Positions 28,689-46,151 of a stretch of 64,000 nucleotides of DNA are shown here, piece after piece. Location of the stretch: contig NC_017030.1 in the NCBI RefSeq assembly GCF_000255295.1, forward strand, positions 5,974,328 through 6,038,327, read 5' to 3'. The position numbers and the translations under genes are program-made. Position 1 is the first letter of the stretch. The number at the start of each line of letters is the position of its first letter. The notes beneath the pieces are model-generated. The model worked only from the letters and a program-made list of their open reading frames with translations, was not told the DNA's origin and searched no databases. The stretch comes from Corallococcus coralloides DSM 2259 (lineage in GTDB: Bacteria > Myxococcota > Myxococcia > Myxococcales > Myxococcaceae).

Positions 28689-29219
28689 CTAGCGGGTGGC
28701 GGCCAGGAGGAACTCGGCCACCCGCTCCAGGGAGGTGGTGCGCTCGGCCTCCGCCGGGAAGCGCCGGAACACCTCCAGTGGCCCGTGGAGGATGAGCGGC
28801 TTGCCATAGCGCAAGGCCAGGACGGCCTCCGCGGCGGTGCCGGCGCCCCCGGGCAGCGCGACCAGCGCATGCGGCGTCAGCACGTTGATGTGGTTGCGGC
28901 TCATGGGGTCCGTGCCCTGCTCCCCGCTGAGCGGCAGGTGCGTGTAGATGGGGATTTCGATGTCCGTGTTCGGGTAGCCGGGCCGGGGCTGGTAGCGGCC
29001 ATCCGCGCCCACGGTGCCGGGGATGATGCCGATGGCCGCCCCCCGCCGCCCCTCCACCTGGACGAAGGCGCCCGCCGCCGCGCTCATGGCGCCGCCGCCC
29101 GCGCCGGTGAGCAGGTCGAACCCGGCCTCCGCGATCCACCGCGCCAGGGGGACGACCCACTCTTCGTGAGAGTGCGCCCCGGAGCCGAACACTCCGATGA
29201 TGCGGCGGTGTCTGCGCAT
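28689..29219 (-). CDS. LOG-family (TIGR00725-like) Rossmann-fold nucleotide-binding protein
   Basis: It has IGVFGSG near the N-terminus, then GAGGGAMSAAAGA and a PGGAGT motif. This is the lysine-decarboxylase-like/LOG fold. Confidence 0.75.
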   Translation of the reverse strand: MRRHRRIIGVFGSGAHSHEEWVVPLARWIAEAGFDLLTGAGGGAMSAAAGAFVQVEGRRGAAIGIIPGTVGADGRYQPRPGYPNTDIEIPIYTHLPLSGEQGTDPMSRNHINVLTPHALVALPGGAGTAAEAVLALRYGKPLILHGPLEVFRRFPAEAERTTSLERVAEFLLAATR

Positions 29220-29767: not shown

Positions 29768-29854
29768 GGGCGTTGACACACGGGCGGCCTGTCCACGAGG
29801 TTTCCGCCTGCTTTCAGGCATTCCCGCCCGGACACAGCACGGAGCACGAACACC

Positions 29855-30247
29855 ATGGGTCTCGCCGAACGGTCGGAACTTGCCGCGTTCAAGAAGGACT
29901 CCCTCGACGCGAAGGTGGCGGAGCTGAAGGAGGCCGCGGCGGGCGCGGACATCCAGGTGACGCTGGACGAGGCGAGCTTCACCAGCACGGCCGCCATCCA
30001 GATGCTCTCCAACGGCGTCTTCGACCGGCTCATCGACGACATGAAGTCCGTCTGTAGCGACGCCATCGGAAAGCAGGCCGTCCGGGAAGGCCTCCAGACG
30101 TTGCACATCGTCCACAAGGACGCGCCGGGCTTCACGCTGGAGCTGACGGGCGGCACGCTCACCCTGCGCGCGAAGCTGGACGGCTCGCTCGGCGAGGACC
30201 TGCCGGGCTACGGCCAGTACAGGGCCTTCCTGCTGAAGAAGCTGTAG
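29855..30247 (+). CDS. Hypothetical protein (130 aa)
   Basis: It is an intact ORF in an otherwise gene-free gap. Its composition is normal. Confidence 0.45.
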   Translation: MGLAERSELAAFKKDSLDAKVAELKEAAAGADIQVTLDEASFTSTAAIQMLSNGVFDRLIDDMKSVCSDAIGKQAVREGLQTLHIVHKDAPGFTLELTGGTLTLRAKLDGSLGEDLPGYGQYRAFLLKKL

Positions 30248-30320
30248 GGCCCACACGGCTTCACGGACCGGAGGGACGCTTTGTCAGCGGTGTCCTCCGG
30301 CCCGGGTCATTCCGTCTGGC

Positions 30321-33300
30321 TCAGGGCACGTCCAGCGCGACGCCCTGCCCCGGGACGGCCATCACCCAGCGGACGACGTCCGGCTTGCCGCCGCAGGTGA
30401 CGCGCACCTCGAACTCGCGCCCCGCGGGCATCTGGCTGGACAGGGGCGTCTGGCCCTCCAGCACCTGCGAGCCCAACGCCACGCGGCAGCCCTGGGCACC
30501 GGTGACGCTGAGCGTGCCCCGGGCATCCGCCTGGGGCGGGGCGTCCGCGAGCGTGCGCAGGTCGATGTGCTCCGACTTCGGCACCTTGCCGAAGCGGTGC
30601 AGCTTGCCGTCCACGGCCGTGGAGATGAGCCAGCCGGAGGTGCCCTCGGGCAGGCCCTGGCTCGCATCCAGCCGCACGCCGGACACGTAGACGCGCTCGC
30701 CCTCCTGGGCGTTGCGCACCTCCACGCCGCCCTTGGGCAGCAGGAACACCAGCGCGAGCCCCGCGAGCACCAGGCCCACGCCCCCCACGATGAGCCCCTT
30801 GCGCTGGCCGGGCGTTATGCCCTTCCCCGTCGCTTCGGCGGCGGGCGCGGAAGCCGCGGAGGAGACCGCGTGGACGGGGGCCGGCGGCGCGGCCACGGGA
30901 GCCGCCGGAGGCCGCGCGGGAGGAGCCACGGGGGCCGTGACCGGCGGAGGCGGCGGCGCGGACATGGGCGCGGGGGGGTGTCCCCCATAGGCCGCGTGGG
31001 TGCCCGTCGTCGGCGACGCATGGGAGCCCAGGGGCGGCTGCTGAGGGGCGCTTCCCTGCGGTGCGTGGGCGGCACCGTATTGCGCGTGGGTGCCTCCATG
31101 CTGCGGCGGGGGCGGCACGGCGGACACAGGGGGCGGCGGCGGGGCCGCGGTCAGGGGGGCGACGGAGGGCACCGACACCGACGGACGCGCGGGCGCCTGC
31201 GGTGGGGGGCCCACGCGCGTGGGCACGTTGGCGGACGCCGCGGGGCGCACCGCGGTGGGCGGCGGCAGCGGCGACGTGGGCGAAGCCGCGGCAGGGCGCG
31301 ACGGACGGGGCGCGGCCACGGGCGGTGCCACCGGAGGCGCGGCGGCCACGGGCGGCGCCACCGGGGGCGAGTTGACGGAGACGACCTCGGTTCCGCGCTC
31401 GGCGGGCTCCGGCGGGGAGGCCACCGGGGGCGGCTCCATCCGGGGCATGCTGCCGGAACCGCCGCGCACGGGCGGCCGGGACAGGTCCGACGGGGCCCGC
31501 ATGTCGCTGCCCGAGCCCGTGCCCGGGTTGCGCGAGTGCGAGCCCGTCCCCGGCATCAGCGCCCGGGGGTTGGAGCCCGTCCCCGAGCCGGCGATGGACG
31601 ACGGCGCGTACTCGGAGAGCCGGTCGCCCAGCGCCTCCTTGAAGAACTGCGCCACCGACGCGGGCGACGAGGACAGCCGGTGGTGCGCGATGACGGCCTC
31701 GATCTCCTCGCGCATCGCCGCCGCGGAGGGCGTGCGCCGCGCCGGGTCCTTCACCAGCGCGCGGAGGATCAGGTCCGACACGTCCTGCGGGATGTGGGGC
31801 CGCAGCTGCGAGGGCACCGGCGCGGGCTCGCGCACGATGGCCGCGAGCGTGGCCGCGTCATGATCCCTGCGGAACGGCAGCTGGCCGGTGAGCAGTTCGA
31901 AGAGCACCACGCCCAGCGCGAACACGTCGTTGCGCCAGTCCAGCGGGCGGCCGCTGGCGGCCTCCGGGGAGAGGTACGAAATCTTCCCCTTGATGACGCC
32001 CGCCTGCGTGTGCTCCTCGCCCTGCACCTTGGCGATGCCGAAGTCCGACAGCTTGATGGCGCCGTCCAGCGACACCAGCACGTTGTGGGGGCTGACGTCG
32101 CGGTGCACCACCGGGTGCGCCGTGCCGGACGGGTCCACGTAGCTGTGCGCGTAGTGCAGGCCCGCGGCCACCTCCGCCACGATGCGCAGCGCGTGCTCCA
32201 GCGGCAGCGCCATGCCCTTGCGGCGCAGCTCCGTGAGCAGGCGCTTGAGGTCCGGGCCGCGCACGTACTCCATCAGGATGTACGCCACGCCGTCCGTCAC
32301 GCCCACGTCGAAGGTCTGCACGACGTTGGGGTGCGTGAGGCGCGCGTTGGCGCGGGCCTCCGCGAAGAGCATGTCGACGAACTCAGGATTCTCAGCGAAC
32401 TGCGCGAGAATCTTCTTCATCACCACGAACTTCTCGAAGCCCTTCACGCCCTGCTGCTTGGCGAGGAAGACCTCCGCCATGCCGCCCTGCCCCAGCCGGC
32501 GGATGATCTGCAGCCGCGCGCTGTTGTTGTGCGTGTCCGTGGCTGACGAACCCCGGGCGCCGGGGTCCTGGTTCGTGGAGCCGAAGAGGTACTGGCTGAG
32601 CGCGCGCTGCTCCAGCGCCTCGATGTCCTCCAGCGGCTTGTCGGTGAGCGGCGTGCGCGCGAGCAGCCCCTGGAACTGCGCGAGCGCCGGAGCCCGGGCG
32701 CTGCCGCCGCAGACGGGGCACACGCGCTCCATGGTGCCCTTGGCGCGCAGCACCTCCAGGTACTCGGAGGTCTGGATGCGCTGGTGGGTGACCTGACCGC
32801 AGTTGCGGCAGTCACACGGCAGCCACAGCGTGGCCAGCTTCGCCGGCAGCGCCTTGGTGGACTTCGCCAGCACCGCCAGCAGCGGCGGCGGAACGCGGCA
32901 GAGCACCACCTGGGCGCCCTGCGACGCCACCTCCAGCACCTGTTCGATGCGCGGCAGCGCTTCCTGCTCCACCACGCTCACGTGGCAGCAGTCGAACGCG
33001 ACGCGCCCCTCCAGGCCGGACGCCAGCCGGCGCACGTTGAGGTCGGCCTTGAGCGTGCTGGCCAGGGTGATGAAGGTGATGTCGTCCTGGACGATCTTCA
33101 GGTGCGACGCGAGCTCGGACGGCTCCGACGGGATGCCGGAGCGCAGGTAGCGCAGCACCGCCGGATCCACCGCGGAGAACTGCTGGCGGCGCGCGAAGTC
33201 GAAGAACTCCGTGGGCTCGTCCGCGAACTCCAGCGGCTGGGCGCACACCGGACACTGGTGCGGCGGGGCCCCGCCCTGCTCCAGCACCTTCGCCTCCTCC

Positions 33301-33671
33301 ACCAGGCGGACCAGCCGCAGCCGGTCCTCCTTGCAGAAGCGGCACGTGTACGGCGCCAGCAGCGAGAGCACGCGCGCGACGCCCGCGAAGCCCTCCACCA
33401 TGTTGAGCTGATCCACCACCACCGGCGGCGCGTTGACGACGTACAGCCCCGACACGCCCTGCGGCGGGTGGCCGGCGAACTCAATCCACCGGCGCACACC
33501 GAAGGAGCTGATCCGCTCCACCAGGCCCAGGTCCACCACCACCAGGCCCTGGATGCCCTTGGAGGCCGGTGAGAGGGGGAAGGTTTCGTCGATCACCCCG
33601 GCCACGCGCACGTGGGTCAGACTGCCCACGCGCAGGGAGGTGATGCTGGCATTGGAAGTTTGGCTCTCCAC
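30321..33671 (-). CDS. Hanks-type Ser/Thr protein kinase (1116 aa). Domain order: tandem STAS-like domains each followed by a C4 zinc ribbon, the kinase domain, a Pro-rich linker, a transmembrane helix, and a C-terminal periplasmic beta domain.
   Basis: Kinase motifs present are GQGGMAEVFLAK (Gly loop), VMK, HRDVSPHNVLV, DFGIA and SPE. The N-terminal region reads ...ITSLRVGSLTHVRVAGVIDETF...CRFC...CPVC, and again ...ITFITLASTLKADLNV...CDCRNC...CPVC. The transmembrane helix is LIVGGVGLVLAGLALVFLL. Confidence 0.9.
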   Translation of the reverse strand: MESQTSNASITSLRVGSLTHVRVAGVIDETFPLSPASKGIQGLVVVDLGLVERISSFGVRRWIEFAGHPPQGVSGLYVVNAPPVVVDQLNMVEGFAGVARVLSLLAPYTCRFCKEDRLRLVRLVEEAKVLEQGGAPPHQCPVCAQPLEFADEPTEFFDFARRQQFSAVDPAVLRYLRSGIPSEPSELASHLKIVQDDITFITLASTLKADLNVRRLASGLEGRVAFDCCHVSVVEQEALPRIEQVLEVASQGAQVVLCRVPPPLLAVLAKSTKALPAKLATLWLPCDCRNCGQVTHQRIQTSEYLEVLRAKGTMERVCPVCGGSARAPALAQFQGLLARTPLTDKPLEDIEALEQRALSQYLFGSTNQDPGARGSSATDTHNNSARLQIIRRLGQGGMAEVFLAKQQGVKGFEKFVVMKKILAQFAENPEFVDMLFAEARANARLTHPNVVQTFDVGVTDGVAYILMEYVRGPDLKRLLTELRRKGMALPLEHALRIVAEVAAGLHYAHSYVDPSGTAHPVVHRDVSPHNVLVSLDGAIKLSDFGIAKVQGEEHTQAGVIKGKISYLSPEAASGRPLDWRNDVFALGVVLFELLTGQLPFRRDHDAATLAAIVREPAPVPSQLRPHIPQDVSDLILRALVKDPARRTPSAAAMREEIEAVIAHHRLSSSPASVAQFFKEALGDRLSEYAPSSIAGSGTGSNPRALMPGTGSHSRNPGTGSGSDMRAPSDLSRPPVRGGSGSMPRMEPPPVASPPEPAERGTEVVSVNSPPVAPPVAAAPPVAPPVAAPRPSRPAAASPTSPLPPPTAVRPAASANVPTRVGPPPQAPARPSVSVPSVAPLTAAPPPPPVSAVPPPPQHGGTHAQYGAAHAPQGSAPQQPPLGSHASPTTGTHAAYGGHPPAPMSAPPPPPVTAPVAPPARPPAAPVAAPPAPVHAVSSAASAPAAEATGKGITPGQRKGLIVGGVGLVLAGLALVFLLPKGGVEVRNAQEGERVYVSGVRLDASQGLPEGTSGWLISTAVDGKLHRFGKVPKSEHIDLRTLADAPPQADARGTLSVTGAQGCRVALGSQVLEGQTPLSSQMPAGREFEVRVTCGGKPDVVRWVMAVPGQGVALDVP

Positions 33672-33675
33672 CCGC

Positions 33676-34518
33676 CTACCCTCGTTCCAGACTGAACAGC
33701 AGCGACTTGGGCTGCGCGGCCCGGCGGCGAGCGTCGCCCAGGTCCACCCCGCAGGCGAACTGCGTGCGCTTTCCCGGAGTCACCCGCACCGCCACCACGT
33801 CGCTGTGCTCCAGGATGCGCCGCAAACCCAGGCCCGCGCCACCACCCGAAGCATCCACCTGCGCCTTCTCACCCCAAGCCTTCACGACCCGCACCAACGG
33901 TGACACCGACAGGCGGCCGAAGCGGTCCGTTGCCTCCAGCCACGCTCGGCCATCCGCCACCGCCCAGGACAGCAGGCAGCGATCATCATCCGCCACCGAC
34001 TGCACCTGGCCGCGCCGATGGGCGTACTTCGGCTCGCCGCTTCCGTCCACTGGCGCGTCGAGCAGGGCGTTCACTCCAATCTCATGGACGACATCCGCCA
34101 CCCGGCTGGCCGCGCCCTTGGAGCCGCCGGCCTGGAGGACGGCCTCGGCCGCGCGCTCGCCCACGGCCGTCACCTCCGCCACGCTGCCCAGCCACGCCAC
34201 GGACGTGGCGGCCTCCTGGGGGATCATGGGCTCGCCGCGCAGCAGCGCGCTCAACAGCCGCGCCTCCCAGGCGGACGGCTGGCCGCCCTCGCGGGTGGCC
34301 AAGAGCAGCGCCGGAGGACGGCGTTCCAGGAGCGCGGCGTGGGCGGGGGTGAACCGCCCGTCGAACAGCACCAGCCGCGGCGCCGCGTCGTCACCGCGCC
34401 CCAACAACAGGCCGTCCCGGGCCAGCACTCCGGAGGCCTTCTCCAGCGCCTCCGGCGTGAGCGTCGTGTCCGGCGTCAACTTCAGGGGAGCATCCTTCAC
34501 GGCGGCGACGGTATCCAA
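33676..34518 (-). CDS. Hypothetical protein (280 aa). Its stop is 4 nt before the kinase start.
   Basis: The ORF is tightly coupled to the downstream kinase gene. I recognised no motif. Confidence 0.55.
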   Translation of the reverse strand: MDTVAAVKDAPLKLTPDTTLTPEALEKASGVLARDGLLLGRGDDAAPRLVLFDGRFTPAHAALLERRPPALLLATREGGQPSAWEARLLSALLRGEPMIPQEAATSVAWLGSVAEVTAVGERAAEAVLQAGGSKGAASRVADVVHEIGVNALLDAPVDGSGEPKYAHRRGQVQSVADDDRCLLSWAVADGRAWLEATDRFGRLSVSPLVRVVKAWGEKAQVDASGGGAGLGLRRILEHSDVVAVRVTPGKRTQFACGVDLGDARRRAAQPKSLLFSLERG

Positions 34519-34526
34519 ACAGGGCC

Positions 34527-37151
34527 CTAATAATGGAGCCGGACTTCGGTGAAGACGCCCAGCGGCGGGGCGGGGAAGCCGTGGGACTCCTCGTACTTCG
34601 CGTTGAAGAGGTTGGTCCCCAACAGCGACACCGCCACGCGCTCGTGGACGTTGAAGCCCACACGCGCGGTCGCGGTGATGTAGCTGGGCAGCTTCACGCG
34701 GGTGGTGGTGCCGGCGTTCTCGTCCACCACGAAGCCCGGATCGTACCGGGCGCCCACGAACAGGCCGTAGAGCTCCACGAAGGCGAACTTGCCGATGTTG
34801 GTGCGGCCGCGCAGGTAGACGCGGTGGCTGGGCGCGTAGTCCAGCGGGTAGCCGGCCCCGCCGCCCACCGGCAGCGCCTGGGCGTCCAGGAACTGGTAGG
34901 CCACGTCGAAGGACGAGTTGATGGACGGCACCTGCGCCGCGGCTTCCGCCTCGAAGCCCGCCACGCGCGCGTCGCCCAGGTTCTTGAACTGGGACGTAGA
35001 GCCGAAGAGGAGCTCCTGATTGATGAAGTTGCGGGCGCGGTTGTAGAAGCCCGTGCCCGTCAGGCGCACCCTGCGGTCCAGCGGCCAGAAGTCCACCGCC
35101 GCCTCCACCGTGTCCAGCGTCTCCGCGCGCAGGGCCGGGTTGCCCAACAGCGTCGCGGCGTACATCTGCTGGTTGATGGCCAGCTCCGCCAGCGTGGGCG
35201 CGCGGAAGGCGCGGCCGTAGTTGGTGCGCAGCGTGAGCAGCTCCGGGATGGCGTGGAACACGACGCTGGCGCGCGGGGACACCTGATCCGTCTTCGCCTC
35301 CCAGACCTTGGAGGGGATCTGGTAGTTGTCGTAGCGGGCGCCCGCGCCCACCACCAGCCGCTCCGTGATGCGGTACTCGGCGTCCACGAAGCCGCCCACG
35401 ATGGTCTGCTTCGTGTCGTCCAGGGTCAGGCCGGGCAGAATGTTCTGGTTGTTCACCTGGTCGGCCTTGATGTCGCCGCCGACGGTGACGGAGAGCTTGT
35501 CCAGGGAGAACAGGGCGCGCGCCTCACCGCCCAGGCGGCTGCGCTTGCCGAGCGTGTCCTCCAGCGCGCCGGTGATCTCATTCTCCAGCGTCACGTTGCG
35601 GCGCTTGAAGAACGCGTAGCCCTGGGCGAACACGCGCACGTTGTCCGTCACCTGCTGATCCAGCTGCAGGGCGGCGTTCAGGTTCTGGACGTGCTCGTTG
35701 TCCTGCGCGGTGTAGTGGCAGCGGCCGCAGTTGCCCACGGTGGAGATGTTCTGACCGCCGGGCCGGCCGATGTTGCCGTCCGTGAAGTCCGCGTCCAGCG
35801 CGAGGGGGCCCACGCGGACCTTGCCGTTCACCTGGTGGACCAGCGAGTCCTCGTTGGTGTCCGTCTGGTTCAGCTGCGGGTTGTTGAAGAGCTGCGGGCC
35901 GTCCGAGCCGAAGCCGTAGTAGCCGAGCAGCGCCTCCACCGGGCCGCCGCGGCCGGCGACGTTGGTCTGCAGGCGCCAGGTCTTGTCCTGGCCCGCGAGG
36001 ATGCGCGCGTCGGCGCCCACGTTCTGGCCCTTGGCGATGAGATCCGCGGGCTGGCGCTCGATGATGTTGATGACGCCGCTGAAGGCGTTGGAGCCGTAGA
36101 GCGAGGAGCCCGGGCCGCGGATGACTTCCACCTGCTTCAGGTTGGTGAGCGGCGTCGTCTCATCCGCGTAGAACTGGCCCGTCCACGGGTCCGTCAGCGG
36201 ACGGCCGTCCTTGAGGAGCAGGAGGCGGTTGGACAGGTAGTTGGAGCCCAGGCCGCGCGCGCTCACCGCCGCCTTGCGCATGGAGCCCCGGCGGCACTCC
36301 ATGCCGGGGAAGTACTGGATGGCCTCGCAGAGCGAGAACTGGCCGGTGCCTTCCAGTTCCTCCGCGGGAATCCAGGACACCGTGAGGGGCACGTCGGAGA
36401 TGCGCTGGCTGCGCTTGGACGCCGTGGTGACGACGGCCTCGCTCAGCGCCAGGTTGATGTTCTGCTCCAGGTCGTCGCCACCGCCCAGGTCCGGGCCGTC
36501 CAGGCCGGAGAGGCTGGAGGGCGGCGGCAGCGCGCGGTCGGTGGTGGGCTCCGTGAAGGGCGCGCGGTCCGGGACGTTGTCCGCCGTGCGCGGCTGCGAC
36601 GCCGGCAGCATCGCGCCGGTCCCCAGCGCGGGCGCGGGCGGCGGGTTGGACGGGATGTCCGACGTCAGCGGCCCGTCATATGGCGACGGCGAGGCGGGCG
36701 AGGCCACGGGCAGCGGATCCGACACGGACGGCCCCGGGCCGACCATGGGTGCGGGAGGCGCGGGCTGCGGCTCGGCGGCGAGCGCCGGCTCCTGCGGCGA
36801 GACGGGCTCGTCCGTGGGAACGGGCTCCACGTCCACCGGCGGGGGCGGCGTCTTCGCGCCCCGGCGCGTCTTCGCCGTGCGCGGAGGCTTCGTCCCCGGG
36901 GTGGCCTTGGCGCCCGGAGTGGCGGGCTTGGCGCCCGGGGTGGTGGCCGCGCGCTTGCGCGGGGCCTTGGTCTTCGTCTTGGGGGCGGGCTCCTGGGCCT
37001 CCTGGGCCTGGGCCGTCTCCATTGCGAAAAGGGACAGGGCGCAGACCACCAGGGTGAGGCACGCGCGCGCGCCCAGCCGACCGGCAAACCCCTTCACCGC
37101 GTTGGTGCGCGATCCACCGTACTCAGTCGAGTCCATCGTTCTCAATTCCAC
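34527..37151 (-). CDS. TonB-dependent outer-membrane receptor with a low-complexity Pro/Ala/Lys/Thr-rich N-terminal extension of about 200 aa
   Basis: It has a signal peptide (...CALSLFAMETAQA). The plug region reads VVTTASKRSQRISDVPLTVSWI ... IEVIRGPGSSLYGSNAFSGVINII. The C-terminus is a beta-barrel ending EVRLHY. Confidence 0.85.
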   Translation of the reverse strand: MELRTMDSTEYGGSRTNAVKGFAGRLGARACLTLVVCALSLFAMETAQAQEAQEPAPKTKTKAPRKRAATTPGAKPATPGAKATPGTKPPRTAKTRRGAKTPPPPVDVEPVPTDEPVSPQEPALAAEPQPAPPAPMVGPGPSVSDPLPVASPASPSPYDGPLTSDIPSNPPPAPALGTGAMLPASQPRTADNVPDRAPFTEPTTDRALPPPSSLSGLDGPDLGGGDDLEQNINLALSEAVVTTASKRSQRISDVPLTVSWIPAEELEGTGQFSLCEAIQYFPGMECRRGSMRKAAVSARGLGSNYLSNRLLLLKDGRPLTDPWTGQFYADETTPLTNLKQVEVIRGPGSSLYGSNAFSGVINIIERQPADLIAKGQNVGADARILAGQDKTWRLQTNVAGRGGPVEALLGYYGFGSDGPQLFNNPQLNQTDTNEDSLVHQVNGKVRVGPLALDADFTDGNIGRPGGQNISTVGNCGRCHYTAQDNEHVQNLNAALQLDQQVTDNVRVFAQGYAFFKRRNVTLENEITGALEDTLGKRSRLGGEARALFSLDKLSVTVGGDIKADQVNNQNILPGLTLDDTKQTIVGGFVDAEYRITERLVVGAGARYDNYQIPSKVWEAKTDQVSPRASVVFHAIPELLTLRTNYGRAFRAPTLAELAINQQMYAATLLGNPALRAETLDTVEAAVDFWPLDRRVRLTGTGFYNRARNFINQELLFGSTSQFKNLGDARVAGFEAEAAAQVPSINSSFDVAYQFLDAQALPVGGGAGYPLDYAPSHRVYLRGRTNIGKFAFVELYGLFVGARYDPGFVVDENAGTTTRVKLPSYITATARVGFNVHERVAVSLLGTNLFNAKYEESHGFPAPPLGVFTEVRLHY

Positions 37152-37371
37152 GAGGGGGAAGCAGGGATGTCCGCGGTCGTTGCGCCAGGAACCAGTGCCG
37201 GTGTGGCTGGCAATCGTTCTCAGGGACGAGTTTCCACCCCTGAACGGTGGCGTTCCGCTCGACTTCTCAAATTACCGCAATAACTCGCCTTAGGCCAAGT
37301 CATGGCTGTCGATCGCGGTGAAACACACGCACGGTGGCTGGGCGCCGTGCGCGGATCAACTCACGCCGCAA

Positions 37372-38298
37372 TCAGTCATCCGGCTGTTCGGCGGAGACGG
37401 ACAGGTCGTCCGCGAACGGCGGCAGGGCAGGACCCAGCGACTCGGACTGGACGAGCACGGGCGTCTCCACCCGCAGGTCGGGGGCGTCCGCGAGGACGGG
37501 CTGACGGCGCGGGGGGCCCTGGGTGACGAGCTTCCGGAAGTCCTCGAACTCGCGGCCCTGGATGCGGGCGAAGGCGTCGAACGGGGCGACCGCACCCACG
37601 GAGGACAGGGACTGGGACAACGCGTCTCCCCCGCCCTTCAGGTCCACCAGCACGGCGCCCGGCACCCGGCTGCTCTTGAAGAGCACCCGCATGTCCCTGG
37701 GCACGTGCGCCACCGGGACGAGCGCGGCCTCCGCGCCCTTGGCCTCCAGCATCTTCACCGCCGACTCCACGTTGGGCACCGGCACCAGCTTGAAGTGCTT
37801 CTGGGCATCCAGGTCACCGCCCAGCACGACGTGGGAGACGAACTTGGGGTCCGCGGAGCCCGCGCCCTTGACCAGCGCCATGCGCTTGCCGGCGAGGTCC
37901 TTCACGGTGCCCTTCTGGAGGGAGATGATGGCCCAGCGCTGCTGCGTCTCACCGGCGCGCGGCGCGTACGCCACCGGCTCCGCCTTGGCGCCCAGCTGCA
38001 CCGCGGCCCAGCCATCCACCACGGCGAAGTCGAGCTGCCCCTCCCCCACCGCCTTGGAGAAGTCCTCGTAGCGGCCGAAGCTCTTGGCGCCGACGGGGCG
38101 GCCCAGGCTGGCCTCCAGCTTCTGGGCGAGCGCCTCCGCGTACTGGAAGCGCTCCTGGCCGTCCGACAGCGTGGTGGCGAGGAACACGCCCAGCGTGGCC
38201 TTCTTCGGCGCGGCGGAAGCGGGGCTGGCAACGGAAACGGCGAACAGCGCGGCGGCGAGCAGGAGGCTCCCCCGCGCGACAAGGGATGGCGTCTTCAC
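37372..38298 (-). CDS. PhnD/SsuA-like periplasmic substrate-binding protein (phosphonate/phosphite ABC-type SBP fold)
   Basis: It starts at a GTG that overlaps the upstream TPR stop (GTGA). It has a signal peptide (MKTPSLVARGSLLLAAALFAVSVASPASA). No cognate permease or ATPase gene is adjacent. Confidence 0.65.
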   Translation of the reverse strand: MKTPSLVARGSLLLAAALFAVSVASPASAAPKKATLGVFLATTLSDGQERFQYAEALAQKLEASLGRPVGAKSFGRYEDFSKAVGEGQLDFAVVDGWAAVQLGAKAEPVAYAPRAGETQQRWAIISLQKGTVKDLAGKRMALVKGAGSADPKFVSHVVLGGDLDAQKHFKLVPVPNVESAVKMLEAKGAEAALVPVAHVPRDMRVLFKSSRVPGAVLVDLKGGGDALSQSLSSVGAVAPFDAFARIQGREFEDFRKLVTQGPPRRQPVLADAPDLRVETPVLVQSESLGPALPPFADDLSVSAEQPDD

Positions 38299-40808
38299 GG
38301 CGTCTCCTCCGCGACCCCATTGGCCGGCGAGACGCCCTGCGCGTCACCCAGTCCATAGAGGCCCTGCAATCGGTCCTTCCATTCCCGCACCTGGGCGGCG
38401 CGGGGGGCCGCGCCAGAGGCCAGGTAGCGGCGCCAGGCGTCCACGGCCTCGGCGGGTTCATGCCGGCGCTCCTGAGCATCAATGCCCAGGTTGAGCGAGG
38501 CGAGGGGCACGGCGGTCTCCAGGCGCTTCCACGTCGCGAGCGCCGAGGCGCTCTCGCCCTGGCGCCAGTCCACGCACGCCAGGTTGTGCTGCACCAGCGC
38601 GTCATCCGGCGTCGCGGCGAGCGCGGCCTTCAGCGCCTTCTCCGACGCCTTCATGTTGCCGGAGGCGTACGCGAGCGCCGCCTCACGCCGCAGCAGCGCG
38701 CCGGTGAGGTTGCCCATCCACTTCGGCTGCCCGGGCATGGGCTTCTTCTGGGCGGTGGTGAGCAGCTTGCGCGAGGGCGCGACCTTGCCCTGGCGGTAGA
38801 GCACCCACGCGTCCGCGAGCGTGCGCGTGTTGGGCCACGCCCATTCCGGCGCGGGCGTGAGGGAGCGCTTGATGCCCGCGGTGGCCTCCGCGAACCGCCC
38901 TTCTTCCGCGCGCGTGAGCGCCCGGGCGAAGGTGGCCAGCTTCGCCAGGTCCGCGCGCTTGCCGGTGCCCAGGCGGTCCACCGCGTCCAGGTCCCGGTTC
39001 GCCGCGGCCGCGTCGCCCGTCTCCAGCTTCGCCAGGGCCCGGCGAACCAGCACGCGGGGCAGGTTCGCCTCCGCCACCTTCGCGGCCGTCTTGGAGGGCC
39101 CCGCGTCCGTCAGCCGCTGCACGGCGGCGTCCACCTGGCCCAGCTCCACCTCCGCGAGCGCGGCGCCCGCGGACGCTTCCGCGCGCTGATCCGGCTCCTG
39201 CGTGGCCTCACCGGACTGATTGAACGCGGCGAGCGCGGCCTGCGCGTCGCCACCACCCAGCCGGGCGTAGCCCAAGAGCAGGTGCTCGCGCCAGGTCACG
39301 CCCGGCAGCGTCACCGCGCCCTCCAGCACCTTGCGGGCCTCCGCGTACTGGCGGCTGTCCAGCAGCGCCGCGCCCAGCCGGCGGGCCATGGGCACGGAGC
39401 GGTCCAGGTCATACGCGCGGCGCAGGTCGCGCACGGCGTCTTCCAGGCGCTGGGTGCCGGCGCGGTCGCGCGCGCGGTGGGCCAGGGCGCGGGCCAGCCA
39501 CTGCTTCGCGCCGGGGTGGCCGGGTTCGACCTGGAGCGCGCTGCCGTAGTCCTCGATGGCCTGATCCCACTGGCCGGTGGCGAAGTGATCCGCGCCCAGC
39601 AGCATGTGGCCCAGCGCCTGACGCGGGGCCATCTCCACCACGCGCCGGTGCACCTCCACCGCGCGCTGGTAGCGGCCGGCGCGGCGGTTGACGGAGCCCA
39701 GCGTCGCCCACAGCTCCAGGCTGCCGCCGCCCGACTTCACGGCGGACTCCAGGAACTGGATGGCCTCTTCATGGCGCGCCTGCGCCTGGAGCGCCTTGCC
39801 CACGGCGATCTGCCCCATCAGCAGGCCCGGCTGCAGCTCCAGCACCTTGCGGAACTCCGCCTCCGCCTGCGCGGGCTGCTTCTGCGCGAGCCGCACGTCA
39901 CCCAGCAAGAGGTGCGCGGCGGGCGTGGAGCCCAGCTTCATCAGGGCGGTGGCCTGCAGGTCCGCGCGCGGCACGTCGCCCGCGGCGAGGTACAGGCGCG
40001 CGAGGCGCTCCTTCGGCTCCGCCACCTGCGGGAACTTCGTCACCAGCCGCTCCAGGAGCGCGCGGGACTCCGGCACGTGGCCTTCCATCTCCAGCACGGC
40101 CGCGAGGCCGATCTGCGCCGTCGCGGACTCGGCCCGGCCGGCCTGCGCCTTCTCGAACGAGGCGCGCGCGGCACCAGCGTCCCGGCGGATGAGGTGCGCC
40201 TTGCCCAGGAGCTCGTGGATCTGGAAGTCGTTGCCCGCGAGCTTCTCCGGACGCAGCACCAGGTAGCGCTGCAGCCGCGTCACGGCCCGGTTCCCGTCCT
40301 GGACGTACAGGTAGTAGCTGGCCAGGTAGTAGTGGACGATGAGGTGGTCCGGCTGATCCGCGGCGGCCACCTGCTCCAGCACCGGCACCGCCTCCTGGAA
40401 GCGGCGCAGCTTGAAGTACGCGGTGCCCAGCGGATACGCGAGCGACAGGTCCTGCGGGTTCTGCGCGAACACCGGCTGAAGGCGCGTCGCCGTGCGCTGG
40501 AAGTCCTGGAGCGCGTTGGCAGCGCTGCCCAGGCCCACGGCGGCGAACACGGACTGCGGCTCCTGCGCGAGCGCCTGCTCGAAGAGCTGGAGCGCCTTCT
40601 TGAACTTCTCCTCCGCCTCCTTCTTGTCGCCCTTGGCGAGGGCGGCGTTGGCGGACACCAGGACCTGCTCGCCCTGCTCCGTCATGCGCTGAGCTTCGGT
40701 GGCGGGCGGCGGGCGGAACTGGGCGAGCGCCGCCGGCGGGCCGGCCAGGGTGGCCAGCAGGGCGAGCGCGGTGCAGACGCGGCGCGGGGAACGGTTGAAT
40801 GGGCGCAT
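38295..40808 (-). CDS. Secreted tetratricopeptide-repeat protein (about 837 aa)
   Basis: It starts at the ATG at 40808 (MRPFNRSPRRVCTALALLATLAGPPAALA, a signal peptide). More than 15 TPR-like helical repeats follow. Confidence 0.8.
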   Translation of the reverse strand: MRPFNRSPRRVCTALALLATLAGPPAALAQFRPPPATEAQRMTEQGEQVLVSANAALAKGDKKEAEEKFKKALQLFEQALAQEPQSVFAAVGLGSAANALQDFQRTATRLQPVFAQNPQDLSLAYPLGTAYFKLRRFQEAVPVLEQVAAADQPDHLIVHYYLASYYLYVQDGNRAVTRLQRYLVLRPEKLAGNDFQIHELLGKAHLIRRDAGAARASFEKAQAGRAESATAQIGLAAVLEMEGHVPESRALLERLVTKFPQVAEPKERLARLYLAAGDVPRADLQATALMKLGSTPAAHLLLGDVRLAQKQPAQAEAEFRKVLELQPGLLMGQIAVGKALQAQARHEEAIQFLESAVKSGGGSLELWATLGSVNRRAGRYQRAVEVHRRVVEMAPRQALGHMLLGADHFATGQWDQAIEDYGSALQVEPGHPGAKQWLARALAHRARDRAGTQRLEDAVRDLRRAYDLDRSVPMARRLGAALLDSRQYAEARKVLEGAVTLPGVTWREHLLLGYARLGGGDAQAALAAFNQSGEATQEPDQRAEASAGAALAEVELGQVDAAVQRLTDAGPSKTAAKVAEANLPRVLVRRALAKLETGDAAAANRDLDAVDRLGTGKRADLAKLATFARALTRAEEGRFAEATAGIKRSLTPAPEWAWPNTRTLADAWVLYRQGKVAPSRKLLTTAQKKPMPGQPKWMGNLTGALLRREAALAYASGNMKASEKALKAALAATPDDALVQHNLACVDWRQGESASALATWKRLETAVPLASLNLGIDAQERRHEPAEAVDAWRRYLASGAAPRAAQVREWKDRLQGLYGLGDAQGVSPANGVAEETP

Positions 40809-40816
40809 GCGGTTCG

Positions 40817-42622
40817 TCACGGCGAGGGTGCGGGGCTGAATTCGGCGACGATGACGGTGATGTCATCGCGCTGGGGCTGGCCGGCGCTGTACGCGCGCAC
40901 GTCCGCGAGGAGCGCGTCGCGAAGAGCATCGGCGGGGAGGTGGGCGTGGGCCTGGAGCGCGGCGGCCAGTCGCTGCGTGCCGTAGAGCCGGTTGGCGCCG
41001 TCGCGCGCCTCGGTGAGGCCGTCCGTGTACCAGACGATGATGTCGCCGGGGCTCAGCTGCGCCTGGCGCGACGTGAACTGCGACGCGACGTTCGCGCCCA
41101 GCAGCGGACCGCGCGCCGGCAGCGACGCCATCTGCCGCGTGTTCCGGTTGTAGATGGCCGCCGCCGGGTGGGCGCCCGCCGCGTAGTCGATGCTGCCGCT
41201 GTACACGTCGATGACCGCGAGCGCGCTGGACATCTGGTGCTCGCCGCGGCCCACGTTGGCCAGCGTCACGTTGAGCGCGGTGATCAGCATCTGCGCGTGC
41301 ACCTGCGACGGCTCGCGCAGCGTCATGGCGGAGGCGAAGCCGCTGGTGGCGCTGGTGGCGACCAGCGACGTGGACAGACCGTGGCCCGTCACGTCTCCGA
41401 TGCCAATCACCACGCGCCGGTCATCCAGCGCGGCGCGGAACCACCAGTCGCCGCCGCATGCGTCCGCGGGCACCACCAGCCCGGCGAGCCGCAGCGGGCC
41501 CACCGTCACGGCCTCGCGGCCCGGCAGGAGCGTCTCCTGCACCGTGCGCGCGAGCGACACCTCGCGCTCCAGCTGCGCCTTGGCGCGCACGTCCTCCAGC
41601 AGGACCTTGATGCGCTCCGCCATGTGGTTGAACACCACGCCCAGCGTCGTCACCTCGCGGCCCGCGCCCGGCGCCGTGCCCGCGCGGGCGCCCAGGTCAC
41701 CGGCGGCCAACTGCATCACGCGGTGGGTGAGCACGCCCAGCGGCTTGGTGATGCGGCGGCTCTGGAACGCGGCCAGCACGCCGGCCAGCACCACGAAGCC
41801 CAGGCCCAGCCCCACGATGCGCAGCGTGTTGGCGCGCACGGAGGCGCGGTTGTTCTCCTCCAGTTCGTGCAGCTGCTTCTGCAGGTCCTCCAGCGAGTAG
41901 CTGATGACCACCACGCCCTTGCCGGACTGCGAGCCGTAGTCGAGCGGCTCCTGGAACTCGAAGACGGGCTGGCCCTGGAAGAAGGCGCTGGCCCAGCGGC
42001 GCTCCGCGGTGCGGCCTCCGGAGGATTCGCCCAGCTTGGCGGACGGGTCGCTGTCCGCGACGAGCTGCCCGTCCGCGTCGAACATCTGCACGCGCAGGAT
42101 GTTGTGGTTGTCCGCGATGATGGAGCGCGCCACTTCCGTGAGGAACGCGTAGTTGTTGTCACGCAGGCTGGTGGCGGAGGTGAGCGCCAGCGTGTGGCTC
42201 ACCGTCTGGCCCAGCTCTCGCGCCTGGGACTGGAGCCGCTGCGTGAAGCGGTCCGACGTCGCGGTGAGCTGCGCCTCCGTCGTCTTCGCGGACAGCGCGG
42301 CCAGCAGGCCGACAATCACGATGACCAGCGCGCCCGTGGTGAGCAGCAGCAGCTGATCCAACCGCAGCCCGCGGATGGCCGCCACGTTGGGCAGCTCTCC
42401 GGCCTCCATGGGCGCGATGACCGTGCTCGTGGGCTCCGCGGCCGGCAGCCCCAGCGCGCCGGTCAGCCGGGTGGCCGTGTTCTCCCCGCGCAGGGCGGTG
42501 AGCTCCCGGGAATGGGTTCCGGTGTACTCCGGAGGAGGAGGCGGGGTGCCGGGCGCCGCATCGGACGCATCGGGAGATTCAGGGGCGGGGTCGAGGCGCG
42601 TGTTCGTACGGGACAAAGGCAC
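40817..42622 (-). CDS. PP2C-type (SpoIIE/RsbU-family) serine phosphatase with a periplasmic sensor domain, a transmembrane segment and a HAMP domain
   Basis: There are two transmembrane segments, LLLTTGALVIVIVGLLAAL and LRIVGLGLGFVVLAGVLAAF. A HAMP-like linker follows. PP2C motifs are GGDWW, GDVTGHG and WYTDGLTEA. Confidence 0.85.
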   Translation of the reverse strand: MPLSRTNTRLDPAPESPDASDAAPGTPPPPPEYTGTHSRELTALRGENTATRLTGALGLPAAEPTSTVIAPMEAGELPNVAAIRGLRLDQLLLLTTGALVIVIVGLLAALSAKTTEAQLTATSDRFTQRLQSQARELGQTVSHTLALTSATSLRDNNYAFLTEVARSIIADNHNILRVQMFDADGQLVADSDPSAKLGESSGGRTAERRWASAFFQGQPVFEFQEPLDYGSQSGKGVVVISYSLEDLQKQLHELEENNRASVRANTLRIVGLGLGFVVLAGVLAAFQSRRITKPLGVLTHRVMQLAAGDLGARAGTAPGAGREVTTLGVVFNHMAERIKVLLEDVRAKAQLEREVSLARTVQETLLPGREAVTVGPLRLAGLVVPADACGGDWWFRAALDDRRVVIGIGDVTGHGLSTSLVATSATSGFASAMTLREPSQVHAQMLITALNVTLANVGRGEHQMSSALAVIDVYSGSIDYAAGAHPAAAIYNRNTRQMASLPARGPLLGANVASQFTSRQAQLSPGDIIVWYTDGLTEARDGANRLYGTQRLAAALQAHAHLPADALRDALLADVRAYSAGQPQRDDITVIVAEFSPAPSP

Positions 42623-42959
42623 ACCTGGGGGAGCCCGCGTCGGAGAAACGCGGTCGGAGCGGGGCGGACTCTATCTCACTTCCTGATTGACGCGAGGAGT
42701 CCACCTGTCGGGCGATTCCTCGCGGCCGCCCCCTCACCTGGCCCCCCAACGGCCGTGCGATCAGCCCGGACCGGGAGCGTCCGAACGCCCCGGGAAGCAG
42801 CACGTCACGGGGCATGGATGAGTTCCGCTCATTGCCGCGTCGCGCCACCCGGGGGCCGAAAGGTGATGGAGAACACCCGTGACATCAGGGTCCTTGAGTC
42901 GGGAGGCCGCGTTCGGAGTATAGGGGCGTCCCTTTCTTTCCCTTCGAGGTCCTCCGCCC

Positions 42960-43967
42960 GTGTCACGGCCCCGGTTGATCAAAGAAAACTCCGCGCCGCT
43001 CTCCCTGCCCCGAGAGCAGCTCATCCGCATCCATGACCTGATGGTGAAGGCGCGCGTCCTGGAGGAGCGCCTGATCCAGATGTACAAGCAGGGTCACGGC
43101 TACTTCTGGATCGGCGGTCCCGGTGAGGAGGCGTTCAACGTCCCCTTGGGCCTGCTGATGAAGGTCGGCGAGGGCCCGGCCTACGACTACCTGCACGCGC
43201 ACTACCGCCAGTCCGCGACGCTGCTCGCCATGGGCGAGGAGCCCATCGGGGCGCTGCGGCAGATGAAGAACACGGCCACGGACCCCTACTCCGGCGGCCG
43301 CAACTTCGCGGGCCACTTCAGCCGGCGCTCGAAGAACATCGCGCCCGTCACCTCCCCCATCGAGGTGCAGTACGCCATCGCGCCGGGCACGGCCATGGCC
43401 CAGAAGCGCCACGGCGGCGACGGCATCACCATCGTCACCGGCGGCGACGCGGGCACGGCCGAGGGCGATTTCGCCAGCTGCCTCATCTGGAGCAGCCGCC
43501 CGGCGAACCCCCTGCCCATCCTGATCATCGTCACCAACAACAAGTGGGGCATCAGCACCACTTCGGACGGCCAGCACGGCGAGACGAACATCAGCGACCG
43601 CGCGCGCGCCTTCAACATCCAGGCGAAGACCATCAACGGCAATGATCCGGTGGAGTCCTACCAGGAGCTCCAGGCCGCGATGGAGTACGTGCGCAAGGAG
43701 CGCAAGCCCTTCTTCATCGAGGCGCGCGTGTCGCGCCTGTACGGGCACTCGTCCGCGTCCGGCGCCAACTTCGTGAACGAGGAGCAGGACTGCCTGCGCC
43801 TGTTCGAGGCGCGGCTGGAGCAGGAAGGCGTCCTCAGCCGCGAGCAGATGGACGAGGCGCGCAACCGCTACTCCGAGGAGCTGGCCGCCGCGGCGCGCAC
43901 CGTGCGCGACGAGCCGCAGCCCTCTGGCGACTCCATCTGGGAACACATCTACGCGGAGAAGAAATAA
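42960..43967 (+). CDS. 2-oxoacid dehydrogenase E1 component alpha subunit (TPP-dependent)
   Basis: The TPP-binding region reads GGDGITIVTGGDAGTAEGDF...IVTNNKWGIST. Confidence 0.9.
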   Translation: MSRPRLIKENSAPLSLPREQLIRIHDLMVKARVLEERLIQMYKQGHGYFWIGGPGEEAFNVPLGLLMKVGEGPAYDYLHAHYRQSATLLAMGEEPIGALRQMKNTATDPYSGGRNFAGHFSRRSKNIAPVTSPIEVQYAIAPGTAMAQKRHGGDGITIVTGGDAGTAEGDFASCLIWSSRPANPLPILIIVTNNKWGISTTSDGQHGETNISDRARAFNIQAKTINGNDPVESYQELQAAMEYVRKERKPFFIEARVSRLYGHSSASGANFVNEEQDCLRLFEARLEQEGVLSREQMDEARNRYSEELAAAARTVRDEPQPSGDSIWEHIYAEKK

Positions 43968-45667: not shown

Positions 45668-46024
45668 TCAGCGCTTGAAGCTCGCGATGACGCGGCGCAG
45701 GCGCTCGTGGTCCTCTTCGCTCACGTCGATGAAGCGCACGCCGATGGCCTCCGCCTCGTCGCGCACCCAGGCGACGACGCCGGTGAGGTGGAACTCCTCC
45801 CCGTCGATGACCATGGCCAGCCGCACCTGAGCGCCCACGTCGTAGGACTTGCGCGTGCGCAGGCAAAGGCCACCCGCGGACACATTCAGGGAGTAGGCCC
45901 GCAGCGCACGCGCCGCGTCCTCCATCTGCTCGAAGCGCACTTCGAACCGCGCCGCCACGCGCTCCTCGGCGCGGCGGTTCATGTACGGGTCTGGCTCCAC
46001 CGGACCATCCAACTTCGTGTTCAT
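45668..46024 (-). CDS. PilZ-domain protein (c-di-GMP binding)
   Basis: It has RRAEERV (RxxxR) and a DVSAGG (DxSxGG) motif. The internal ATG at 46024 has a purine-rich RBS-like stretch upstream. The alternative start is 46087. Confidence 0.7.
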   Translation of the reverse strand: MNTKLDGPVEPDPYMNRRAEERVAARFEVRFEQMEDAARALRAYSLNVSAGGLCLRTRKSYDVGAQVRLAMVIDGEEFHLTGVVAWVRDEAEAIGVRFIDVSEEDHERLRRVIASFKR

Positions 46025-46151
46025 GCGCACCCTGACCCCCTCGGTTCTCGGACCGGAAGTGTCGGCTGGTTTCCAGGCCCGGTTCAAGGGCCCCCGGACA
46101 ACGGAATGGCTCGTGTAAGTCCCAGGCTACTTCGACGCCAGGAGTTTCCGG

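Follow-up and report, generated by a model that had tools for sequence, protein, structure and literature searches.

A six-gene cluster of Corallococcus coralloides DSM 2259 as a candidate partner-switching system with a membrane Hanks-type kinase as its probable output

We analyzed a stretch of 64,000 nucleotides from Corallococcus coralloides DSM 2259 (NC_017030.1, positions 5,974,328 to 6,038,327; hereafter, the window), in which a cluster of six genes encodes a Hanks-type Ser/Thr kinase together with what appear to be the parts of a phosphorylation switch acting on it. The window has ~70% G+C. All six genes are on the minus strand, arranged head-to-tail between 42622 and 30321, and encode, in order, a sensor PP2C phosphatase, a TPR protein, a PhnD-like binding protein, a TonB-dependent receptor, a 280-amino-acid (aa) protein that we assign to the GHKL ATPases, and a 1116-aa Hanks kinase. 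Positions are those of the window unless another locus is named, and all features of the cluster are on the minus strand. A preliminary description of this DNA, made from the letters alone, had proposed the same arrangement, and it was borne out: all six open reading frames (ORFs) have coding-type G+C content at third codon positions (GC3 of 0.88-0.96), and Pfam agreed with the listed identities except for the 280-aa protein, which had no match. On one side of the cluster is an E1-dehydrogenase gene in divergent orientation (42960+), on the other a convergent ORF of 130 aa (29855-30247+). The phosphatase gene stops with TGA at 40819-40817 and the ATG of the TPR gene at 40808 lies 8 nt downstream of this stop, an order that the preliminary description had inverted. 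A GTG at 40820, overlapping the end of the phosphatase gene, is a possible alternative start. The TPR and PhnD-like genes overlap by GTGA (38298-38295) and a gap of 220 nt (37152..37371) separates the PhnD-like gene from the receptor gene, both as described earlier. The receptor and GHKL genes are 8 nt apart, and the GHKL and kinase genes 4 nt.

The first gene (40817..42622) encodes a 601-aa membrane sensor phosphatase, identified with Pfam, NCBIfam and hydropathy; the last of these was used to call transmembrane (TM) helices and signal-like segments in all cluster proteins. Residues 400-595 match profile positions 1-191 of 192 of Pfam SpoIIE (1e-38, 133.6 bits against a cut-off of 25), which places the enzyme in the SpoIIE class rather than the PstP-type PF00481 class and upholds its earlier assignment to the SpoIIE/RsbU phosphatases that act on STAS proteins. 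A HAMP domain occupies residues 288-338 (3.8e-09). The TM helices at 91-109 and 267-285 enclose a periplasmic stretch of ~155 aa with weak Cache matches, both below cut-off (dCache_1, 7e-04; sCache_4, 1e-03), and the N-terminus is cytoplasmic and Pro-rich. The match to the NCBIfam SiaA equivalog NF038263 was partial, extending across HAMP and PP2C with 87 bits against a cut-off of 700. In a genome survey, the M. xanthus orthologue, MXAN_4562, is named as the sole SpoIIE-like phosphatase of that species, and STAS proteins are given as the usual substrates of this class (PMC2887360).

The last gene (30321..33671) encodes the 1116-aa Hanks-type Ser/Thr kinase, in the order STAS module 1, ribbon 1, STAS module 2, ribbon 2, kinase, Pro-rich linker, TM helix and periplasmic domain. 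BLASTP (E of 3e-06) shows homology between residues ~10-160 and 190-335, and the CxxC...CxxC motifs of the two stretches align in register. Module 1 spans residues ~8-104 (33360..33650) and is followed by a ribbon of four cysteines (33222..33359; C110 and C140 invariant, C113 and C143 near-invariant). The degenerate module 2, recognized by its homology to module 1 and by profile matches, spans residues ~190-284 (32820..33104) and is followed by the second ribbon (32682..32819; C288, C318 and C321 invariant, C291 near-invariant). When the ribbon was left out of the module 1 profile, its significant matches in the PDB were STAS chains only, and the module 2 region matched MlaB (0.014), TM1442 and the STAS domain of YchM. 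Ten of 40 relatives scanned with Pfam (E ≤ 0.001) matched STAS_2 (best, 9.3e-10) and 6 matched STAS. Both modules are STAS domains by fold. The earlier description as tandem STAS plus zinc-ribbon modules is right at the fold level, given that the module 1 profile significantly matches STAS chains alone; it does not extend to a family match for the kinase itself, a point taken up below. The top PDB matches of the complete tandem-module profile were C2H2 zinc-finger arrays, which we rejected as an artifact: the CxxC-~26-residue-CxxC spacing spans two consecutive fingers, and once the ribbon was removed STAS domains alone matched significantly. Ribbon 1 was modeled with β hairpins at 103-110 and 115-122 and has weak Pfam zinc-binding matches (zf-Di19, 0.005; rubredoxin-like, 0.042). 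Four conserved cysteines per module suggest that the ribbons are putative zinc binders.

Within module 1, the predicted phosphorylation site is Ser56 (codon 33504..33506; motif ERISSFGVRRW). Conservation, alignment and the predicted model all point to this residue. Ser56, G58 and W62 are invariant in two alignments of divergent family members, with 40 and 31 sequences, where the motif reads R-[IV]-[ST]-S-F-G-[VI]-R-x-W. HMMER alignments pair Ser56 with the Ser of MSSAG in 4hyl and of MDSAG in TM1442, and in the predicted model a helix (56-67) begins with it. SpoIIAA and RsbV, which antagonize anti-sigma factors, are phosphorylated at this site, Ser58 and Ser56, respectively. In module 2 the equivalent position holds Gln, and Pro, Asp or Gln in relatives (alignment A3), so module 2 is not switchable in the manner proposed for Ser56. 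The earlier suggestion that the STAS domains of the kinase are the phosphatase substrate could apply to module 1, which alone keeps the acceptor, and not to both.

The catalytic domain, residues 388-653 (31713..32510), matches Pfam Pkinase at 1.2e-41 (143.2 bits against a cut-off of 31.7). It carries the glycine loop GQGGMAEV, the lysine of VVMKK, the catalytic loop HRDVSPHN, DFG and SPE, and is thus a Hanks-type kinase. The usual Ser/Thr kinase catalytic loop is HRDxKxxN; here (residues ~520-530) a Ser takes the place of the usual Lys. This substitution is common in the family: among 75 fused-kinase representatives (within P0137-P0284), HRDVSPHN occurs exactly in 33 and HRDLKPEN in only 2, the remaining variants being mostly HRD[VI][ST]PxN. 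Beyond the catalytic domain, the Pro-rich linker, TM helix and periplasmic domain noted earlier were all recovered. Of 270 aa in the linker, 71 are P and 51 are A, and the helix (960-978) is followed by an extracytoplasmic domain of ~138 aa (30324..30794 for helix and domain). The latter is 87-94% identical within Corallococcus and close relatives and 34-51% identical across genera outside them. It had no Pfam match, and a resemblance to PEGA was seen by eye only.

Between the receptor and the kinase lies the gene that had been called hypothetical (33676..34518). From its fold and conserved motifs, we assign its 280-aa product to the RsbW/SpoIIAB class of GHKL proteins, with an additional N-terminal α/β domain. 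The modeled N-terminal domain covers residues ~10-110 and a Bergerat-fold ATP-binding domain residues ~113-277. Its best structural relatives were specifically STAS-phosphorylating kinases, not histidine kinases. In an alignment of 35 homologues (A1), three motifs are invariant: E146-x3-N150-A-x2-D-A-P, D198-x-F-G and G225-GGAGLG. The first forms the N-box-like EIGVNALLDAP at residues 146-156 (34051..34083; invariant E146, N150, A151, D154, A155 and P156), and the last the G2-box-like GGGAGLG at residues 225-231 (33826..33846). We take the three to resemble the N, G1 and G2 boxes of GHKL ATPases, and EIGVNALLDAP to resemble the ExxxNA motif of SpoIIAB. The predicted local distance difference test (pLDDT) value fell below 50 at residues 222-226, the lid loop beside the glycine motif. 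The protein is 97-98% identical to proteins of Corallococcus strains, and a sequence search for its family returned 128 matches and 59 genome loci, confined to Myxococcaceae/Archangiaceae-type genomes.

We next consider how tightly these genes are linked. Of 61 related genome loci that were fetched, 57 have sequence past the GHKL gene and 4 end at a contig edge; the tandem-STAS kinase directly follows the GHKL gene in 57/57. The full six-gene order was found in at least 39 loci, at 50-98% protein identity, in Corallococcus, Myxococcus, Pyxidicoccus, Archangium, Vitiosangium, Hyalangium and Citreicoccus. M. xanthus DK1622 has the same order from MXAN_4557, the kinase orthologue, in which Ser61 corresponds to Ser56, and MXAN_4558, the GHKL orthologue, to MXAN_4562. 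The phosphatase and STAS-kinase genes are co-encoded across Myxococcaceae/Archangiaceae genera. The refuting conditions set in the preliminary description, N-terminal modules unlike STAS or phosphatase and kinase genes that never occur together outside this strain, thus did not come true. In four divergent loci from metagenome-assembled genomes (L048, L053, L055 and L056), a phosphatase gene directly upstream of the GHKL gene is kept and its type varies. It is a plain HAMP-SpoIIE enzyme in L056 (2589-4604), a 1391-aa HAMP-HisKA-HATPase-4xREC-SpoIIE hybrid, with an SBP_bac_8 binding protein next, in L048 (4565-10005) and L053 (4366-8529), and a calcineurin-like metallophosphoesterase in L055 (4823-5638). 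The link between GHKL and tandem-STAS genes also held at greater distance. Using a module 1 alignment (A5), 80 metagenome loci were found, a set biased towards a kinase-less subfamily of ~740 aa. An ORF of the GHKL family lies immediately upstream of the tandem-STAS gene, on the same strand, in 60 of the 68 metagenome loci with at least 1 kb of upstream sequence. The GHKL-family neighbor in L062 gave 99.4% in hhalign against the GHKL family profile, and L064, L145, L146 and L147 have a member within the cluster. No other gene is linked as tightly to the STAS-kinase as the supposedly hypothetical one.

The identity of the GHKL protein alters the interpretation of the locus, because the locus now has every member of the canonical triad: its PP2C is of the SpoIIE class, its GHKL protein is of the RsbW class, and STAS module 1 has an acceptor serine. 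The preliminary description had envisaged a self-contained switch with no GHKL kinase, in which the Hanks domain services its own STAS domains; with a GHKL gene in the cluster, that version is unsupported. By analogy with known systems, we instead think it fairly likely that the cluster is a partner-switching-type phospho-switch whose regulated output is the membrane Hanks Ser/Thr kinase. What it regulates is probably a kinase, not a sigma factor. In such a switch, the GHKL protein would bind STAS1 of the kinase and phosphorylate Ser56, and the membrane PP2C would strip the phosphate on a cue sensed by its periplasmic domain. The phosphorylation state of STAS1, and hence GHKL binding, would set the activity or partner choice of the fused Hanks domain. 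Unphosphorylated STAS1 may be the 'on' state, as in SiaC-SiaD and All4160. STAS2 would not be phosphorylatable and could, with both four-Cys ribbons, provide structural or docking elements; the ribbons may also add metal or redox input. Four elements of this scheme are shown in silico: the protein folds, their conserved motifs, where Ser56 lies and how the genes are linked.

The remaining three genes encode envelope proteins. The exported TPR-repeat protein (38295..40808, Pfam and hydropathy) has 837 aa if started at the ATG at 40808 and 841 aa if started at the GTG at 40820. It matches many TPR families of Pfam (e.g., TPR_19, 1.1e-31) and has an N-terminal hydrophobic segment at 11-29 with ALA at its end. 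The 308-aa PhnD-like periplasmic substrate-binding protein (37372..38298) matches Pfam Phosphonate-bd at 6.4e-11 (42.5 bits against a cut-off of 27) and has a signal-like segment at 6-30. It is not a PhnD equivalog, scoring 23 bits against a cut-off of 261 with NCBIfam TIGR03431. A Pfam scan found no ATP-binding cassette (ABC) permease or ATPase genes (phnC/phnE) in the cluster, and for this reason we call it an orphan. The 874-aa TonB-dependent receptor (34527..37151) comprises a signal sequence, a Pro/Ala/Thr-rich extension, a Plug (residues 251-360, Pfam 2.5e-18) and a barrel (TonB_dep_Rec_b-barrel at 456-848, 3.3e-44). Its low-complexity extension, reported earlier, is real in that the Plug begins only at residue 251 and residues ~51-235 contain 45 P in 185 aa. 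We assign no signaling domain to this extension because no Pfam family other than Plug and barrel was found at E ≤ 0.1. The best NCBIfam matches of the receptor (heme and TOL_0244 families) were all below cut-off. The M. xanthus orthologue is called as 859 or 917 aa depending on the pipeline, so its start is uncertain. FecA-type surface signaling through a TonB-dependent transducer was considered and rejected, as the receptor has no STN domain and there are no extracytoplasmic function (ECF) sigma factor or FecR genes among the neighbors. In locus L051 (2169-6760), genes for a pyridoxal phosphate (PLP)-dependent enzyme and an ornithine cyclodeaminase-family protein precede the receptor gene upstream of the GHKL and STAS-kinase genes. 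This pair resembles SbnA/SbnB-type siderophore precursor synthesis, and may hint at the kind of ligand taken up by the receptor.

The receptor, the orphan PhnD-like protein and the TPR protein would most likely serve as the envelope input of the switch. A ligand would cross the outer membrane, and the binding protein would present it to the sensor domain of the PP2C or to the periplasmic domain of the kinase. Two observations led us to propose this route: the binding protein, which has no transporter genes, is encoded beside a sensor, and L047, L048 and L053 also have a binding protein, though a different one. An internal promoter may lie in the 220-nt gap ahead of the receptor gene and divide the cluster into two transcription units. 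Neither a sigma-70-like promoter nor a terminator-like pattern was found in this gap above shuffle expectation. A riboswitch or other RNA element was rejected, as there was no credible Rfam match anywhere in 29800-43100, where a scan returned two weak opposite-strand matches, both far below the gathering score.

Several observations weigh against the proposed switch or parts of it. At the level of the STAS domains, the kinase's own Pfam STAS_2 score is sub-threshold (18.5 bits against a cut-off of 29.2). The GHKL protein had no Pfam, NCBIfam or PDB-sequence match, RsbW and SpoIIAB families included; because no sequence match to RsbW or SpoIIAB is detectable, its kinase activity is proposed from fold and motifs only. 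Unlike the Bacillus systems, the locus has no sigma factor (a Pfam scan of the cluster and its neighbors found no such gene), and a switched second partner of the GHKL protein is not evident in it. The fused Hanks domain is a candidate for this partner. The phosphatase link is not universal, given that a PP2C gene lies near just 2 of the 33 long loci of the ~740-aa subfamily. Envelope gating is the weakest step, because the receptor, PhnD-like and TPR genes are dispensable (they are missing from divergent loci L047, L048, L053, L055 and L056), because of the 220-nt gap, and because in L058 the PP2C-TPR-PhnD genes are divergent from the receptor-GHKL-kinase genes. Finally, the Hanks domain could itself phosphorylate Ser56. 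Who phosphorylates whom, the sign of regulation, any second GHKL partner and the whole envelope route are inferred.

The last objection leads to an alternative along the lines of the preliminary description, in which the kinase uses its Hanks domain to phosphorylate one or both of its STAS domains, the sensor PP2C reverses this, and the GHKL protein is either a phospho-state-dependent binder or irrelevant. Such a scheme fits the presence of STAS and kinase in one polypeptide and of a co-encoded PP2C. However, the GHKL gene, with its invariant ATP-site-like motifs, is the most conserved neighbor of the STAS gene, and the linkage holds also where the tandem-STAS protein is without a fused kinase. 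A mere binder would not need conservation of ATP-site motifs, and the serine is kept by STAS1 only. We therefore regard autophosphorylation as unlikely. An ordinary kinase-phosphatase pair of the PknB/PstP type, in which the PP2C acts on the Hanks activation loop or on substrates, the STAS-ribbon modules are never-phosphorylated domains for ligand binding, dimerization or scaffolding, and the GHKL protein is an ATP-binding accessory, seems quite improbable. It sits poorly with a Ser56 that is invariant across 40 divergent members and placed at the antagonist phospho-site on a helix N-terminus, with a phosphatase of the SpoIIE class instead of PstP-type PF00481, and with a GHKL protein whose nearest structural relatives phosphorylate STAS domains. 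Very unlikely, in our judgment, are two unrelated neighboring units, namely an envelope uptake set (TPR, PhnD-like, receptor and perhaps the PP2C as its regulator) beside a separate GHKL/STAS-kinase pair: the 220-nt gap, the opposite strands of the L058 halves, the receptor-GHKL-kinase loci L050 and L051 (tblastn found no PP2C in the ~3.6 and 4.3 kb ahead of the receptor) and L047 and L055, which are without all four upstream genes, speak for separate units, but at least 39 loci of seven named genera preserve the six-gene order at 50-98% protein identity, loci that have lost the envelope genes still have a phosphatase (often with another binding protein) immediately upstream of GHKL, and the PP2C is the only SpoIIE-type enzyme of M. 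xanthus, of a class that usually acts on STAS proteins (PMC2887360).

The tandem module is not confined to this cluster. Word-indexed searches for homologues of the kinase N-terminus recovered no more than 15-16 proteins, most of them partial, and a full-library search was needed. Searching 1.84 billion cluster representatives with the tandem module gave 2282 relatives at E ≤ 0.001, of which 882 reached E ≤ 1e-10. The preliminary claim that this architecture is uncharacterized holds insofar as we found no experimental study in the literature; it cannot be taken to mean that the architecture is rare. Among the best 150 representatives, 128 are long, and 75 of these have a fused Hanks domain, with the STAS module N-terminal in 67. 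Other tandem-STAS relatives bear FIST, PDZ or cyclase domains. The named taxa include Myxococcaceae, Archangiaceae, Kofleriaceae and 'Deltaproteobacteria' metagenome-assembled genomes. We tentatively suggest, while holding it doubtful in its full extent, that the GHKL protein and the tandem STAS/four-Cys-ribbon module form a distinct, Myxococcota-wide partner-switching cassette that Pfam and NCBIfam models do not recognize, plugged into fused or adjacent Hanks kinases and into FIST, PDZ and cyclase proteins. In Myxococcus and Corallococcus, the TonB receptor and orphan binding protein would feed a ligand signal to the kinase by way of the sole SpoIIE-type phosphatase.

Other arrangements of these genes were observed as well. 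Proteins of the ~740-aa subfamily (L062 6216-10722 and most of L065-L144) consist of the tandem STAS-ribbon module and ~400 aa with no Pfam match, and have no kinase domain. Their genes have a GHKL-family gene before and one for a TPR-PEGA protein after; a stand-alone Hanks kinase gene, which is usual, and a TPR gene lie ~2 kb upstream in divergent orientation. In L146, from a Kofleriaceae metagenome-assembled genome (5956-17040), a SpoIIE phosphatase, a 1648-aa FIST-FIST-tandem-STAS protein and a 357-aa Hanks kinase are followed by a 651-aa tandem-STAS protein and a 327-aa GHKL-family protein. Genes with a Lant_dehydr_N domain (lanthipeptide-dehydratase-like) adjoin the GHKL and STAS-kinase genes both in M. 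xanthus (L002 14063-20237) and in L147 (996-3440), a metagenome locus unrelated to it; such genes are absent from the window. Signaling genes also flank the cluster in the window, all on the minus strand. They encode a 1433-aa protein with adenylate/guanylate cyclase, AAA_16 and TPR regions (23833-28134), a SLOG cluster-4 protein (28689-29219) and a PilZ-domain protein (45668-46087).

Myxobacteria have about a hundred eukaryote-like kinases, almost none of which, to our knowledge, has a known input. For one of them, with an orthologue in M. xanthus (MXAN_4557), our results suggest what acts upstream: a sensor phosphatase, a predicted RsbW-like kinase that would be dedicated to it and that annotation pipelines have missed entirely, and a single invariant serine. 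They also yield a testable hypothesis, that partner-switching, classically a means of sigma factor control, is used to gate signaling by a Hanks kinase. Thousands of sequence clusters contain the GHKL and tandem-STAS cassette, with outputs that differ. Therefore, a result on one member would annotate a large 'hypothetical' family and add a new class of partner-switching output.

The literature on these genes is sparse. For MXAN_4557-4562, we found only proteomic listings of the receptor and a phosphatome survey. Searches confined largely to open literature found no papers on MXAN_4557, MXAN_4558 or a GHKL/tandem-STAS cassette, and returned nothing relevant on a known PhnD/TonB-receptor/sensor module. 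The closest systems compare as follows. Like RsbU-RsbV-RsbW and SpoIIE-SpoIIAA-SpoIIAB of Bacillus, the cluster combines a PP2C of the SpoIIE class with a small GHKL protein, structurally of the RsbW/SpoIIAB class, and with STAS, in which a conserved serine sits at a helix N-terminus, here in module 1 only. In contrast to those systems, STAS is not stand-alone here; it is duplicated, each copy has a four-Cys ribbon, and the whole is fused to a Hanks kinase. An extra N-terminal domain of ~100 aa is present in the GHKL protein, which as a whole is recognized by no Pfam or NCBIfam model, and the phosphatase is membrane-bound, with a periplasmic sensor domain. Rv1364c of Mycobacterium tuberculosis belongs to a sigma factor pathway and fuses RsbU, RsbW and RsbV together, whereas here the genes are separate and STAS is joined to a Hanks kinase.

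Partner-switching with a non-sigma output is established for SiaABCD of Pseudomonas aeruginosa, and the HAMP-PP2C layout of the cluster phosphatase is SiaA-like. The cluster does not qualify as a SiaABCD system, which is recognized by a SiaA equivalog at the cut-off of NF038263, a DUF1987 SiaC and a SiaD diguanylate cyclase. All4160, Alr3423 and HenR of Anabaena PCC 7120 offer a second precedent: STAS is fused in cis to a glycosyltransferase, its conserved Ser is phosphorylated by an RsbW-type kinase, All4160 is reactivated by a SpoIIE-type phosphatase, and a paralogous kinase gene adjoins its STAS-enzyme gene (PMC13555669). Fusion of STAS in cis to the regulated enzyme is shared with the cluster. 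The Anabaena module differs in its glycosyltransferase output, single STAS domain, absence of Cys ribbons and cyanobacterial lineage, and the input of its phosphatase is a receiver domain, whereas that of the cluster PP2C is a periplasmic sensor. Fusions of STAS (COG1366) to eukaryotic-like kinases were recorded in Sorangium cellulosum in the 2010 genome survey by Treuner-Lange; in the passages searched, no mechanism is given, the adjacent GHKL gene is unrecognized, and the tandem STAS-ribbon module and conserved serine are undescribed (PMC2887360). The kinds of components in the cluster are thus all already known. What is new is an unannotated family of RsbW-class proteins and its near-obligate pairing with a tandem STAS/four-Cys-ribbon module, along with a Hanks kinase as the fused output and a conserved, six-gene, envelope-linked version of the system in Myxococcus and Corallococcus.

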